From Escherichia coli O157:H7 (lineage in GTDB: Bacteria; Pseudomonadota; Gammaproteobacteria; Enterobacterales; Enterobacteriaceae): 64,000 nt of DNA. The notes below the pieces were generated by a model, which made no database searches, was not told where the DNA came from, and worked only from the letters and a program-made list of their open reading frames with translations. The DNA is taken from NCBI RefSeq assembly GCF_013167455.1, contig NZ_CP038328.1; one strand, 5' to 3'. The position numbers and the translations under genes were made by a program. Below, piece by piece: positions 11,223-56,389 of the stretch (its first letter is position 1; the number at the start of each line of letters is the position of its first letter).

Positions 11223-12239
11223 TTAATCATCCGGCGTCAGTTCGCCGCGCAGGTTTTGGCTCATGGCCTTGCGAATGGTTTCAGTATCCAGTTCCTGGCT
11301 AAGCAGGTAATGCAGTTTGGTTAGCGTGGCTTCTACAGTCATATCTGCACCGCCAATAACGCCAGCATGGGCGAGGGCGTTACCGGTGGCATAACCACCC
11401 ATATTCACTTTACCGGACATACATTGTGTCAGGTTGACCACCACAATACCGCGATCGCTGGCTTCTTGTAATTCCTGCAGGAAGGCTTTGTTTTGTGGCG
11501 CATTACCCACGCCATAGGAGCGCAGAATCAATGCTTTCACCGGTTGGCGCAGAAAATTGCGCACGACGTCAGCAGAAATCCCTGGATAAATCGTCACTAC
11601 GCCAATTGGTTGTGGGGTGATTGGATGTACGATCAATTCCCCTTCACCGTGCGGGGCGGGTGGCGTATTCAAACGACGAATATGGATACCTGCTTCCAGT
11701 AACGGAGGAAGGTTTGGAGAGGCAAACGCATCAAAACCATCGGCATGGGCTTTGGTAGTGCGGTTGCCGCGATACAGTCGGTTATTAAAAAAGAGTGTTA
11801 CTTCGTTGATCGGATAATTCGCCGCAACGTACAACGCATTCAGCAGATTAATTTGTCCGTCAGAGCGTAACTCAGCCAGCGGGATTTGTGACCCTGTCAC
11901 AATGACCGGTTTACCGAGATTTTCGAGCATGAACGACAGCGCAGAGGCGGTATACGCCATCGTGTCGGTGCCGTGCAGAATGACAAAACCATCATAGTCG
12001 TCATAGTGCGCTTTAATATCTTCAGCAATATGCTGCCAGTCTTCCGGCGTCATATCTGAAGAATCCATCAGCGGCGTATATTCATGAATGGTGAAATCTG
12101 GCATCTCCGGGCGATGGAATTCCGGCATCAGCGCCAGTTGGCGTTGTAGATGACCTGACACCGGTATATAACCCTGCTCGGAACGCTGCATCCCGATGGT
12201 CCCGCCCGTGTAGGCAACGTAAATTGATTTCTTTTGCAT
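11223..12239 (-). CDS. ansA: cytoplasmic L-asparaginase I
   Basis: 338-aa ORF MQKKSIYVAYTGGTIGM..., asparaginase type I threonine-rich active-site N-terminus. Confidence 0.9.
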   Translation of the reverse strand: MQKKSIYVAYTGGTIGMQRSEQGYIPVSGHLQRQLALMPEFHRPEMPDFTIHEYTPLMDSSDMTPEDWQHIAEDIKAHYDDYDGFVILHGTDTMAYTASALSFMLENLGKPVIVTGSQIPLAELRSDGQINLLNALYVAANYPINEVTLFFNNRLYRGNRTTKAHADGFDAFASPNLPPLLEAGIHIRRLNTPPAPHGEGELIVHPITPQPIGVVTIYPGISADVVRNFLRQPVKALILRSYGVGNAPQNKAFLQELQEASDRGIVVVNLTQCMSGKVNMGGYATGNALAHAGVIGGADMTVEATLTKLHYLLSQELDTETIRKAMSQNLRGELTPDD

Positions 12240-12319
12240 GATATTGATATGAATGATATCGAAAGAGCAAAAGTATATACGTGAGGGGCAGCGAGCGCAC
12301 CTGGATACTCTGTGGATAT

Positions 12320-12368
12320 GAGAAAAGTCCGGCAGGACGGAGGGATTAGTGTCCCGCCGGAGAAAAGT
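12320..12368 (-). terminator. intrinsic terminator of the inserted ORF: imperfect hairpin CCGGCGGGAC/GTCCTGCCGG followed by ACTTTTCTC on the minus strand
   Basis: Stem-loop plus T-rich tail immediately after the stop of ORF 12371..13093. Confidence 0.5.
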
Positions 12369-12370
12369 GG

Positions 12371-13093
12371 TTAATCCTGCAACGCATAGGTTACGGTCGT
12401 GACTACGCGTACCGTTTTATTAATCGCCGTAGGATCATCTTCATCACTGCCACTGGCAAAGATCTGGAATACGCCTTGTGAGGCATCGCTAATTGACCCC
12501 ACCTGGCTACCTGAGTCCGTTGCAAATTGTAGTGCGGCGTTGCGTGCATCTTTGGTGGCGGCAGCAATCATCTCAGCGCGCAGTGCGCCAATACCATTAA
12601 AGCGATAGGCGACTTTGCTCTCAGCGATAGCGCCATCCGTAGCGACTTGCAGTTCGTTTAATTTCGCGACGACTTTTTCGACAGCAGCAACATTATGGGT
12701 TTTTATCGTCACTGACCCGTCTGCGTTATAGCGTGGCATTGTGGGATCATCTTTCAGATAAAAGGAATCTGTTCGCTTGCTTGTCCATTGGCCCAGAATT
12801 ATCTCTTTCTCGTTAATCCCCTGAGCATTGAGTTCGGCAACAATTTTTTTCTGCGCTTCTTCCAGTTTCGGGAACAGTTCGCCGGGAACATTACCCTTAA
12901 AGTTAATCGCAATTGTTAATTCCGCCGTATCTGCGCGAACTTCTTTTTCAGAAAGCCCGCGCACATTGACATAACGGTTGTTGGTTTTTAAATGTTTAAC
13001 ACCATCGCCAACAAAATAACCACAGGCGCTAATCCCCAGTCCGAGGACGATAGCGGCAATTAAAGAGGGGGCCTTGTTCACTGATGACTCCAT
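12371..13093 (-). CDS. putative lipoprotein, SIMPL/DUF541-like (periplasmic 26-kDa antigen family); not in the K-12 gene order as I recall it
   Basis: 241 codons from the ATG complement at 13091-13093 (MESSVNKAPSLIAAIVLGLGISACGYF...); signal peptide with lipobox ISAC; the longer ORF-track form begins at a GTG. Confidence 0.65.
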   Translation of the reverse strand: MESSVNKAPSLIAAIVLGLGISACGYFVGDGVKHLKTNNRYVNVRGLSEKEVRADTAELTIAINFKGNVPGELFPKLEEAQKKIVAELNAQGINEKEIILGQWTSKRTDSFYLKDDPTMPRYNADGSVTIKTHNVAAVEKVVAKLNELQVATDGAIAESKVAYRFNGIGALRAEMIAAATKDARNAALQFATDSGSQVGSISDASQGVFQIFASGSDEDDPTAINKTVRVVTTVTYALQD

Positions 13094-13196
13094 ATCAGAT
13101 GCTAAATGAGCAAGGGAATGTAGTGGAGAGAGGGAGTGAAAGACAGTCCGATTCAGGAGTGTGGCCGACAGCATATCGGCCACATTTTTGCAGGAT

Positions 13197-15053
13197 TTAA
13201 CGCACGTTGGCGCAGGTCAGGCAAAACGCATAACGGTTTTGTGGGTCGTTAAACGCCGCCAGCTTGTCGCTTTCACTTTTAACGGTAGAGGCTACCGAGG
13301 CCAGCGGTGCAGGTAACATGGCCTGGAACGCATCTGGCAACATTGCCCGGACAGAACCAGACATGTTGTCCATCACTTTGTCGAAGAAGGTCGGTTCATC
13401 AACGTAGTATTCCAGATGCCACTGTTTCGCTTTTGCCAGCTCTGCTGCTTTGGCGACCGCATCATCGAAATCCCCGAGACTATCGACCAGCCCGTTAGCT
13501 TTTGCGTCCTGACCGGTCCAGACGTGGCCCTGGGCGATTTTATCAATCTGCTCCGGCGTCGAATGACGCGCATCAGCAACCAGCGTGATAAAGCGTTTAT
13601 AGCCATTCTCAATGCTTAACTGCATCATCTGCTGCGCTTCCGGCGGCAGTGCCCTGGTGATAGAAACATCCGCCAGCGGTGAAGTTGAGACACCATCAGT
13701 ATGAACACCAATCGAATCCAGACTATTTTCTACGGTGGTGATCACGCCGAAGATACCAATAGAACCGGTCAGGGTGCTGGGGTTAGCCACAATGTAATTA
13801 GCTGGCGTGGAAATCCAGTAACCACCAGATGCCGCCATGCCGCCCATCGATACAACCACAGGCTTACCCGCTGCCCGGGCTGCTGCCAGTTCAGCGCGAA
13901 TCACTTCAGACGCGGTAACGCTGCCGCCTGGGCTATTAACACGCAGGACAATCGCTTTCACTTTCGGGTCAAGGCGAGCGTCGCGGATTTGTGCCGCAGT
14001 GGTATCACCGCCAACATTCCCCTGAGTTTCCTCGCCATCCATAATTGCGCCATTAGCGAAGACGACACCGATGCTGTCACCGGTATCTGCCGGCGTTTTC
14101 AATGCGTAATCGTAATAACTGATGGCGCGATAATTTTTATCAGCCTTACTCCAGCCGAACTCTTTGGTCAGTGCTTTTTCGATTTCCGCACTCGATGCCA
14201 GTGCATCGACCAGCTTGTTTTCCAGTGCATATTTCGCGGTATCGCCACCGGTTTTGGTTAAACCCTCAAGCAACCCTTGCGCGCCAGGGAATACCTGCTG
14301 AGCAGGGATCTGCCGGTTAGCGGCAACAGTATTCAGATAGTTTTGCCACAGCTCACCAATCCAGCGGCTGTCAGCTTCGCGGGCTGCCGGTGACATGTCA
14401 TCACGAATAAACGGTTCAACGGCAGATTTATACGTACCCACGCGGAACACATGGGTGGAAACTTTCAGCTTATCCAGCAACGATTTGTAGTACAGACCGT
14501 TGGTAGCAAAACCGTGCAAATCCACCACGCCTTGCGGTGACAGCCAAATTTTATTGGCGAAACTGGCGAGATAATATTGCCCCTGGCTGTAGTTCTCGCC
14601 AACGGCATAAACCGGTTTCCCGCTGTCACGAAACTCTTTCAGGGCTTTGCCGATGTACTGCATAGACGGTTGGTCGCCGCCTGCGAAGTTTTTCAGATCC
14701 ATCACGATACCGGTGATATTGCGGTCATCCTTCGCCTGGCGAATGGTATTGACGATATCAAACAGTGAGTTTTCCTGCAGACGATCGGAACTGGCACCAA
14801 GTAGTTGGCGGCTTAATTTACTAAACCGCTGAGAACTGTCGGGTTTATCGACGATCACACCAGAAATGTCCAGCAGCAGTGCACCACGACTGGCCGTTTC
14901 TTTCGAATCACCACCACTGACCTGCATCCAGATCCCCACACCAACCAGCACGAGAAAAATAAAGAACAGGTTAAGTACCATTTCACGGACGAAATTCAGC
15001 AGACGCCACGTCCATTTAAAAAATCCGGCAATAAATCGCCAAAGGGTTCGCAT
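13197..15053 (-). CDS. sppA: signal peptide peptidase A (protease IV)
   Basis: 618 codons from [21 protein letters not shown]; tandem S49 peptidase domains. Confidence 0.9.
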
Positions 15054-37935: not shown

Positions 37936-37940
37936 TACTT

Positions 37941-37964
37941 ACCCGCAGAAATCTTTCTGCGGGT
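37941..37964 (+). terminator. perfect inverted repeat ACCCGCAGAAA/TTTCTGCGGGT after astE
   Basis: Read directly from the sequence; the tail is only weakly T-rich. Confidence 0.45.
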
Positions 37965-38180
37965 ATTAAGTTACCTTCTTATAAATTAATACAGATTAAT
38001 CCTGGTTATTTGCTTTATTTATCACCAGTCATCCGGTATAGTTCTTCATAATCTCTGCAAAATCATGGTGTTGTAATATTCTCTCATCACTCTCCATCAA
38101 ATTTTCTTTTTTTCTCCATAATTGGCGCAAAAGTGTTTTTTACACTTTCATTGTTTTACCGTTGCTCTGATTAATTGACG

Positions 38181-40469: not shown

Positions 40470-40572
40470 TGCTACGCCTGTCAGGCCTATTCGACTCCTG
40501 CAATGTATTGAATTTGCATAGTTTTGTAGGTCGAATAAGGCGTTCACGCCGCATCCGGCGTGAACAAATTAC
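40470..40572. repeat. BIME/REP cluster between cho and nadE
   Basis: Palindromic units CGCCTGTCAGGCCTATTCGAC and TGTAGGTCGAATAAGGCGTTCACGCCGCATCCGGCGTGAACA. Confidence 0.65.
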
Positions 40573-40604
40573 TCTTTTTTGCACAATCCAATAGGTGCAA
40601 ATTA

Positions 40605-44085: not shown

Positions 44086-44436
44086 ATGATGGATCTCGAT
44101 AATATTCCCGATACGCAAACGGAAGCTGAAGAGCTGGAAGAAGTGGTGATGGGGCTTATCATCAACTCCGGACAAGCGCGCAGCCTGGCGTATGCCGCAC
44201 TGAAACAGGCGAAGCAGGGCGATTTTGCCGCAGCAAAAGCCATGATGGATCAGTCACGGATGGCATTGAATGAAGCGCATCTGGTACAGACGAAACTGAT
44301 TGAAGGCGATGCGGGCGAAGGTAAGATGAAAGTGAGTCTGGTGCTGGTCCACGCTCAGGATCATTTAATGACGTCCATGCTTGCGCGTGAACTGATTACT
44401 GAATTAATTGAGCTTCATGAAAAACTGAAGGCATAA
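44086..44436 (+). CDS. chbA: PTS chitobiose-specific EIIA
   Basis: 116-aa ORF. Confidence 0.9.
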
Positions 44437-53522: not shown

Positions 53523-53640
53523 ATACAGTGCACGGAAGTGGTGACGGTGTAACTCTTTCTCTTAAATTGACGATTAATCCGTCAGTTGAATGCAAATTCA
53601 GATAAAGAACCAGGGGCAGCGTGATCACTGCCCCTGGTCA

Positions 53641-56289: not shown

Positions 56290-56389
56290 AGTTCACCCCT
56301 TTGTTATCACATGACTTTTGAGCATAGTCGGAGAAACGCGTTGCCGACAGGTTGGTGATGATTCCCCCAATGCTGGGGGAATGTTTTTG

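Follow-up and report, generated by a model that had tools for sequence, protein, structure and literature searches.

What does a terminator-like hairpin do when it faces away from both genes that flank it? Such an element lies between sppA, encoding signal peptide peptidase, and a gene for a SIMPL-domain lipoprotein (hereafter, the SIMPL gene) in the window analysed here, a 64,000-nucleotide stretch of Escherichia coli O157:H7 DNA (assembly GCF_013167455.1, contig NZ_CP038328.1). The initial annotation had described it as a textbook intrinsic terminator on the plus strand, and had offered two explanations: either it stops antisense transcripts that leave an inserted ORF, or sppA relies on the hairpin alone or is read through.

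The hairpin and its neighbours

Over positions 12150-13350, the window is 100% identical to O157:H7 strain PV15-279, and the gene calls at the locus are those of the PGAP annotation of an identical O157:H7 record. They place sppA and the SIMPL gene on the minus strand on either side of the hairpin, as the initial annotation had stated, followed by ansA on the same strand (Table 1). The hairpin begins 12 nt past the sppA TAA in the direction of transcription, and the hairpin with its run of five T's (T5) lies 7 nt from the complement of the stop codon. The SIMPL protein matches Pfam family PF04402/DUF541 (E = 3e-18); from the sequence, it starts at a GTG preceded by GGAG and carries the lipobox ISAC. 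The nearest plus-strand CDS is ydjE, which ends at 10478, 2.7 kb upstream of the hairpin.

Table 1. Features of the sppA-SIMPL-ansA locus, in window coordinates (d, terminator score)
Feature	Position	Strand	Details
ansA CDS	11223-12239	minus	PGAP
Predicted SIMPL terminator	12320-12362	minus	Hairpin 12327-12362, UUUUCUC 12320-12326; d = +5.6, -21.1 kcal/mol
SIMPL-domain (PF04402/DUF541) lipoprotein CDS	12371-13081	minus	PGAP
Promoter-like site	12966-12994	plus	TTGACA-17-TAAATG
Hairpin-to-SIMPL spacer	13082-13159	minus	78 nt, ends at SIMPL start codon
ORF through the hairpin	13084-13200	plus	38 codons
-10-like hexamer in spacer	13117-13122		TACATT
Conserved block in spacer	13136-13150		CGGACTGTCTTTCAC
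Hairpin, anatomy	13160-13184	plus	Arms TGTGGCCGA (13160-13168) and TCGGCCACA (13176-13184), 7-nt loop CAGCATA (13169-13175); from sequence and folding
Hairpin, read on plus strand	13160-13184	plus	d = +8.5, tail weight 3.75, tail UUUUU then GCAGG (marginal U-tract)
Hairpin, read on minus strand	13160-13184	minus	d = -30.5, tail CUCCUGAAUCGG
T5 run	13185-13189	plus	Reads A5 on the sppA strand, immediately before the hairpin
sppA stop codon	13197-13199	minus	
sppA CDS	13197-15053	minus	PGAP

The anatomy described earlier was confirmed on both strands. On the plus strand, a GC-rich stem of nine perfect pairs (six of them G-C), as in intrinsic terminators, encloses a 7-nt loop and is followed directly by TTTTT. 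On the minus strand, the hairpin is co-oriented with sppA and lies just past its stop, and no U-tract follows it. The plus-strand RNA folds at -27.4 kcal/mol (z = -6.7, none of 200 shuffles being as good); this fold reaches into the T-run through G-U pairs, with predicted pairing of the U's to AGGAG upstream. The minus-strand RNA folds at -19.7 kcal/mol (-17.8 in a second estimate; z = -3.9) into an 11-bp stem with a 3-nt loop. Terminator scores, computed with our own implementation of the d'Aubenton-Carafa score, are positive for the plus strand and negative for the minus strand.

The configuration is unlikely to arise by chance: the window contains five distinct perfect hairpins of at least 9 bp, this is the only one flanked by T5 or A5, and the combination arose in 1 out of 100 dinucleotide shuffles. 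The motif is unique in the window with three mismatches allowed, and it occurs at one place per genome in the 943 E. coli genomes that carry the allele. Rfam searches over 12000-13500 returned no match at E-values up to 10. A REP/BIME or other dispersed repeat is ruled out by the single copy and the absence of an Rfam match.

Orthologous hairpins in Escherichia and nine missing bases

Alignments revealed the same stem (GTGGCC...GGCCAC) at an equal distance from the sppA stop in O157:H7, the ST131 strain EC958, MOD1-EC7003, E. whittamii, E. albertii, E. fergusonii and K-12, the stem lying 12 nt past the stop in all Escherichia examined. In K-12, the sequence in the sppA direction reads TAA-GTCTTGTACTGA-GTGGCCGAC-AGATC-GTCGGCCAC-ATTATTTTTTAC. 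It shares with O157 the stem GUGGCCGA/UCGGCCAC and the 7 nt between the conserved arms. Past the hairpin, K-12 has AUUAUUUUUU where O157 has CUCCUGAAUC, giving d = +21.9 in the sppA direction and -25.4 on the opposite strand. A 'Primary' sppA 3' terminus has been mapped in K-12 by RNAtag-seq/Term-seq at 1850735 (U00096.3; Supplementary Data 3, PMC10687069), and this position falls within the U-tract past the hairpin. Since the K-12 hairpin matches that of the window in place and has a mapped 3' end, the window hairpin is, on these alignments, the orthologue of the mapped sppA terminator and of the sppA terminator hairpin found across Escherichia. The two alleles differ in that the A5 upstream of the O157 hairpin has no counterpart in K-12, the loop sequences are unlike each other, and no SIMPL gene follows in K-12.

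The most telling comparison for the O157 arrangement is with E. fergusonii. Gene order is unchanged there (ydjA / sppA-SIMPL-ansA-pncA), the outer stem (UGUGGCC/GGCCACA) is shared, A/T-rich sequence forms a 5' shoulder, and the spacer past the hairpin is homologous. In this species, the sequence past sppA reads TAA-ATCAGCAAATTA-TGTGGCC-(16-nt apical part)-GGCCACA-TTTTTTTGT-CTCCAGAATCAGACTGTTTTTCAC. It differs from O157 in its longer apical loop and in having kept a sense U7: the hairpin with T7 scores d = +16.5 in the sense direction and -31.3 in the antisense direction. The bases that follow the U7 region, CTCCAGAATCAGACTG, align to O157 CTCCTGAATCGGACTG (in the O157 stretch CTCCTGAATCGGACTGTCTTTCAC); therefore, the alleles differ by a 9-nt indel covering the sense U-tract. 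The 9 nt missing from the O157-type allele, TTTTTTTGT, lie precisely at the position of that tract. We refer to the form present in E. coli phylogroups E and B2, E. albertii and E. whittamii as the O157-type allele.

Two other ways of deriving the O157 arrangement were discarded. An inversion of the hairpin with its T-run is ruled out by the 12 nt between stop and hairpin, which are equal in length and alignable across species through the states AAATTA, AATTA, AAATA and AAAAA; it is also rejected because the 9-nt indel, on the other side, accounts for the difference between the alleles. The second was a composite sense terminator, in which an outer stem (GUCC/GGAC) would combine with the distal U-rich CUGUCUUUC. 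It is predicted in E. albertii, where it scores negative, and the outer pairing is disrupted in O157, E. whittamii and E. fergusonii.

We searched one genome per species with SppA as the query and inspected the sequence downstream of the 80 loci obtained, 74 of them from other genera. Most other-genus loci with readable downstream sequence show, by eye, a sense hairpin and T-run right past sppA; the one that was scored, in Citrobacter youngae, has d = +22.3. Three loci (L016, L034 and L067) have no such hairpin and T-run. The SIMPL gene is absent from all the other-genus loci, in which ansA mostly lies ~50-65 nt past sppA, with longer gaps in about a dozen. One metagenome-assembled genome, Citrobacter sp. 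HRGM_Genome_0066 (L004, L011), has a contig whose SppA is 99.5-100% identical to that of O157 and a second contig with a Citrobacter-like sppA, so this bin is mixed.

Within Escherichia, a SIMPL gene lies between sppA and ansA in every non-coli lineage examined (MOD1-EC7003, E. whittamii, E. albertii and E. fergusonii, the protein of the last being 70% identical). Among 5,426 complete E. coli genomes, 943 carry it, including O157:H7 and O55:H7 (phylogroup E) and ST131 EC958 (B2); the remaining ones, K-12 among them, have a sppA-ansA spacer of ~170 bp and no SIMPL gene. This distribution marks the SIMPL gene as old in the genus and lost from most E. coli, and not as a recent O157 insertion. Describing it as an inserted ORF, as the initial annotation did, is thus misleading. 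The 943 allele-carrying genomes are at least 98.5% identical over the 66 surrounding bases, which amounts to one mismatch allowed at any position.

The origin of the K-12-type spacer is less simple. Past the U-tract, it contains a 52-nt segment (TTATTTTTTACGTCGACGAATCC...CATATTTCCT; approximately 769-820 in locus L001) whose similarity to the O157 spacer, the O157 post-SIMPL region and both E. fergusonii regions is no better than that of shuffled sequences. A microhomology deletion between two CCAC motifs, one at the end of the hairpin and one just past the SIMPL stop, was considered as the source of the K-12 allele and set aside, as the 52-nt segment matches neither side. Moreover, for alleles within a species, K-12 and O157-type sequences diverge unusually far in the loop and in the 12 nt preceding the hairpin. 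The two classes of sppA-spacer alleles, therefore, look either old or brought in by recombination.

Taken together, the comparisons make it fairly probable, in our view, that the hairpin is that of the original intrinsic terminator of sppA and that its sense U-tract was lost in the O157-type allele, leaving a poor stop and read-through into the SIMPL gene. The appearance of a backwards terminator would then probably be an ordinary by-product of evolution. Of the two original explanations, the comparative evidence (sense U-tracts in K-12 and E. fergusonii, none in O157) speaks for reliance on the hairpin alone or read-through and not for an antisense stop. One observation counts against such decay: the K-12-type allele, with its U-tract, is nested among E. 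coli whose SIMPL-carrying alleles have none.

The run of five T's and the plus strand

Along the alignment, the plus-strand T5 corresponds to the A/T-rich shoulder upstream of the old sppA terminator, in a form specific to its lineage. On the sense strand, this shoulder ends in AAATTA in E. fergusonii, AATTAC in E. albertii, AAATAT in E. whittamii and AAAAAT in O157, EC958 and MOD1-EC7003. The plus-strand equivalents in the first three are TAATTT, TAATTG and TATTTG, respectively, so T5 is not conserved. Since the shoulders are equal in length and their endings vary, T5 is one or two point changes away from sister-species states without a positive terminator score. The plus-strand score is negative in E. 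whittamii, E. albertii and E. fergusonii, and in the first two it is negative on both strands. Within the O157-type group, T5 was found in four E. coli sequences (the window, EC958, 100248 and AST85) and in MOD1-EC7003. Together with the positive plus-strand score and the near-identity of the 943 genomes around the hairpin, this makes selection for antisense termination within E. coli conceivable.

The plus-strand element, therefore, deserves the word 'textbook' in part. The hairpin, the T5 and the positive score stand; the term overstates a tract of only five U's that are predicted to be paired with AGGAG, a T-run that the sister species lack, and a setting with neither a plus-strand gene end nor a convincing promoter. 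The element does not lie at the end of a co-oriented gene or transcript, and its U-tract is not retained in orthologues.

This bears on the possibility that the hairpin is a working plus-strand intrinsic terminator, kept against antisense transcripts that would otherwise enter sppA from the SIMPL gene or beyond it. We consider this rather unlikely. The positive score, the very stable fold and the presence of T5 in every O157-type sequence inspected (the four E. coli and MOD1-EC7003) are in its favour, against which stand the degenerate T-run with its negative scores in the three sister species, the short and probably paired U-tract, the distance to ydjE as the closest plus-strand gene, and the absence of an Rfam match. 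The plus-strand promoter scan of the locus found no site reaching 10 of 12 matches. The best promoter-like site (Table 1) pairs a perfect -35 with a weak -10 and would suit an antisense start, but the invariant -10 T is missing, and the -35 reads TTCACA in two SIMPL-carrying lineages. In the extreme form of this proposal, which we judge very unlikely, the plus-strand hairpin and U5 would end an unannotated cis-antisense RNA of ~190 nt, starting near 13002 and covering the SIMPL ribosome-binding site and first codons, so that E. coli would have recycled one shoulder of the decayed sppA terminator as the end of a new regulatory RNA. It is possible that the plus-strand hairpin stops stray antisense RNA; such termination would probably be incidental, a by-product and not the reason for the element. 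A plus-strand coding ORF through the hairpin was also considered and rejected: it has no Shine-Dalgarno (SD) sequence, and its frame is broken by a 4-nt indel in E. albertii.

The supplements of a 3'-end paper (eLife, 2021) make no mention of sppA, and a literature search by locus tag returned nothing relevant. For EHEC Sakai, Term-seq and dRNA-seq data sets exist, the latter as GEO GSE143631 (PMC7547250).

An insertion sequence has used the same site. In strains 100248 and AST85, IS200C is inserted exactly between T5 (13189) and GCAGG (13190), co-oriented with the plus-strand hairpin and T5 (1641-2351 in locus L003). Six other IS200C copies sampled from other genomes all lie directly 3' of a hairpin and T-run, for instance at sites after rph and wzzB. 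A preprint from 2025-26 reports terminator-like sequences upstream of IS200/IS605 elements, in agreement with these sites. That IS200C chose this hairpin and T5 in the plus orientation, as it did six genuine-looking terminators elsewhere, might be taken as support for an antisense terminator. However, an insertion sequence selects its target in DNA. The choice marks the plus-strand configuration as terminator-like at that level and is uninformative on RNA termination. In L003, the right end of the element provides sppA, along its direction of transcription, with a canonical terminator (d = +26.5).

Conservation of the stem and the fate of sppA transcripts

The stem-loop has been conserved more closely than its surroundings. 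Its 23 nt are identical in O157, EC958, MOD1-EC7003, E. whittamii and E. albertii. In E. albertii, the match is 23 out of 23 positions, compared to 72 out of 96 in the rest of the spacer; were sites independent, a full match over 23 positions would have a chance of ~0.001. In E. albertii, one closing pair shows a compensatory change from U-A to C-G. At two positions altered on one side only (C to U in strain E69, and U/C at the innermost pair), G-U pairing persists only in the sppA-sense RNA. Covariation is weak, with one compensatory pair that 79 out of 500 shuffles equal. Overall, the pattern of substitutions leans towards selection on the sense RNA.

The palindrome GTGGCCGA-N7-TCGGCCAC might be an operator bound by a dimeric regulator of the SIMPL gene, the RNA hairpin being irrelevant; it lies ~80-100 bp upstream of the SIMPL start, and its half-sites and 7-bp spacing are common to O157-type and K-12-type alleles. 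We find this scarcely credible, given that K-12-type genomes retain the palindrome without a SIMPL gene and have a mapped terminator there. In addition, the arms in E. fergusonii are reduced to their outer 7 bp and enclose a 16-nt spacer, which suits an RNA stem and not an operator of fixed spacing, and the one-sided changes keep G-U pairing.

Strict conservation of stem and loop while the flanks drift would also be expected of an element for RNA stability or processing. The sppA RNA would then end downstream, through Rho in the spacer or at the SIMPL terminator, and be trimmed by exonucleases back to the hairpin. Hairpins that protect upstream cistrons are established in general, the REP sequence between malE and malF being an example, and like them the sppA hairpin is a stable stem-loop without a U-tract between co-oriented genes. 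Unlike REP/BIME hairpins, it is single-copy and outside any repeat family. Nowhere else in the 1.2-kb region does C exceed G as much as in the spacer (26 C and 10 G in 78 nt), which would suit Rho; on the other hand, 78 nt before a ribosome-binding site leave little room for Rho loading. As an explanation in its own right, we think this quite improbable, although it overlaps with the decay of the sppA terminator and does not oppose it. If it were true, there would be a stable sppA-only message, and the levels of sppA and SIMPL would be uncoupled.

Under the loss of the sense U-tract, which remains our preferred explanation, the course of the transcript can be outlined. E. coli RNA polymerase requires a U-tract for efficient intrinsic termination, so most sppA transcripts of the O157-type allele should pass the hairpin. 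The hairpin would terminate them poorly, and they would continue over the 78-nt spacer, through the SIMPL gene, to an end at 12320-12326. The SIMPL gene is followed there by a canonical sense terminator of its own, at which RNA that escapes the sppA hairpin probably stops. The sppA hairpin may have been retained because it still aids its mRNA, either by weak pausing or termination or by blocking 3' exonucleases. Rho involvement is conceivable, given the C-rich, G-poor spacer.

The spacer itself has several features that might influence expression of the SIMPL gene: the conserved block CGGACTGTCTTTCAC, a -10-like TACATT and the SD sequence GGAG before the GTG. They could represent a rut site, SD sequestration or a promoter. 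RNAfold pairs the spacer CUCUCCA with the SIMPL SD (UGGAG). Conservation of the CGGACTGTCTTTCAC block and of a TAnAnT hexamer extends from E. coli to E. fergusonii (the hexamer being TACATT in O157 and TAGAGT in E. fergusonii). No sigma-70-like promoter with at least 8 of 12 matches was found from the 3' part of sppA to the SIMPL start; the conserved TAnAnT may be a weak SIMPL promoter. The strong terminator ahead of the SIMPL gene in E. fergusonii means that this gene must be served there by a separate promoter. Therefore, SIMPL expression in O157 need not depend on read-through. In a milder and similarly unlikely version of the recycling proposal, loss of the U-tract would have joined sppA and SIMPL into an operon in one class of alleles, and the other class would have discarded the SIMPL gene and kept the terminator.

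Bidirectional terminators, in which an A-tract, a hairpin and a U-tract lie between convergent genes, are similar in appearance. The resemblance consists of a GC-rich hairpin with an A/T-rich shoulder, and GCAAATTA-hairpin-UUUUUUUG in E. fergusonii is partly symmetric. Nevertheless, O157 retains one side only, the A-tract side on the sense strand; the flanking genes are co-oriented, not convergent; and the antisense strands of K-12 and E. fergusonii do not score as terminators. An orphan, wrong-way terminator can thus be what is left of a normal one that has no U-tract and has kept its A/T-rich shoulder. This calls for caution in calling terminators from sequence alone and in annotating antisense transcription. 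The alleles also form a natural series for the contribution of the U-tract in vivo: hairpin with U7 in E. fergusonii, hairpin with U-tract and no SIMPL gene in K-12, and hairpin alone in O157 and B2 strains. Such a series would reveal whether or not sppA and the gene for the uncharacterised SIMPL lipoprotein are expressed together in O157 and ST131.

An automated terminator scan did not list the hairpin, probably because a G-T-tolerant stem extension absorbs the T-run. In a crude scan of the whole window, whose gene assignments are unreliable beyond ~44 kb, it was the clearest positive-scoring intergenic terminator opposing both neighbouring genes. The sole other site opposing both neighbours in that scan was a REP-like hairpin (GCCGCATCCGGCG core) followed by TTTTTT, at 40533-40574 on the plus strand between the minus-strand genes cho and nadE, with d = +0.1. 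The IS1203 copy that splits chbA in PV15-279 is absent from the window (at ~44240-44340), and beyond ~44.3 kb window coordinates are 1331 bases below a colinear mapping onto that strain; the window therefore represents an O157-type strain other than PV15-279. Three further perfect hairpins of 9-11 bp are located at 37940-37965, 53609-53638 and 56361-56382; the second has a strong terminator score on the minus strand (d = +25.9) and probably follows hxpB.
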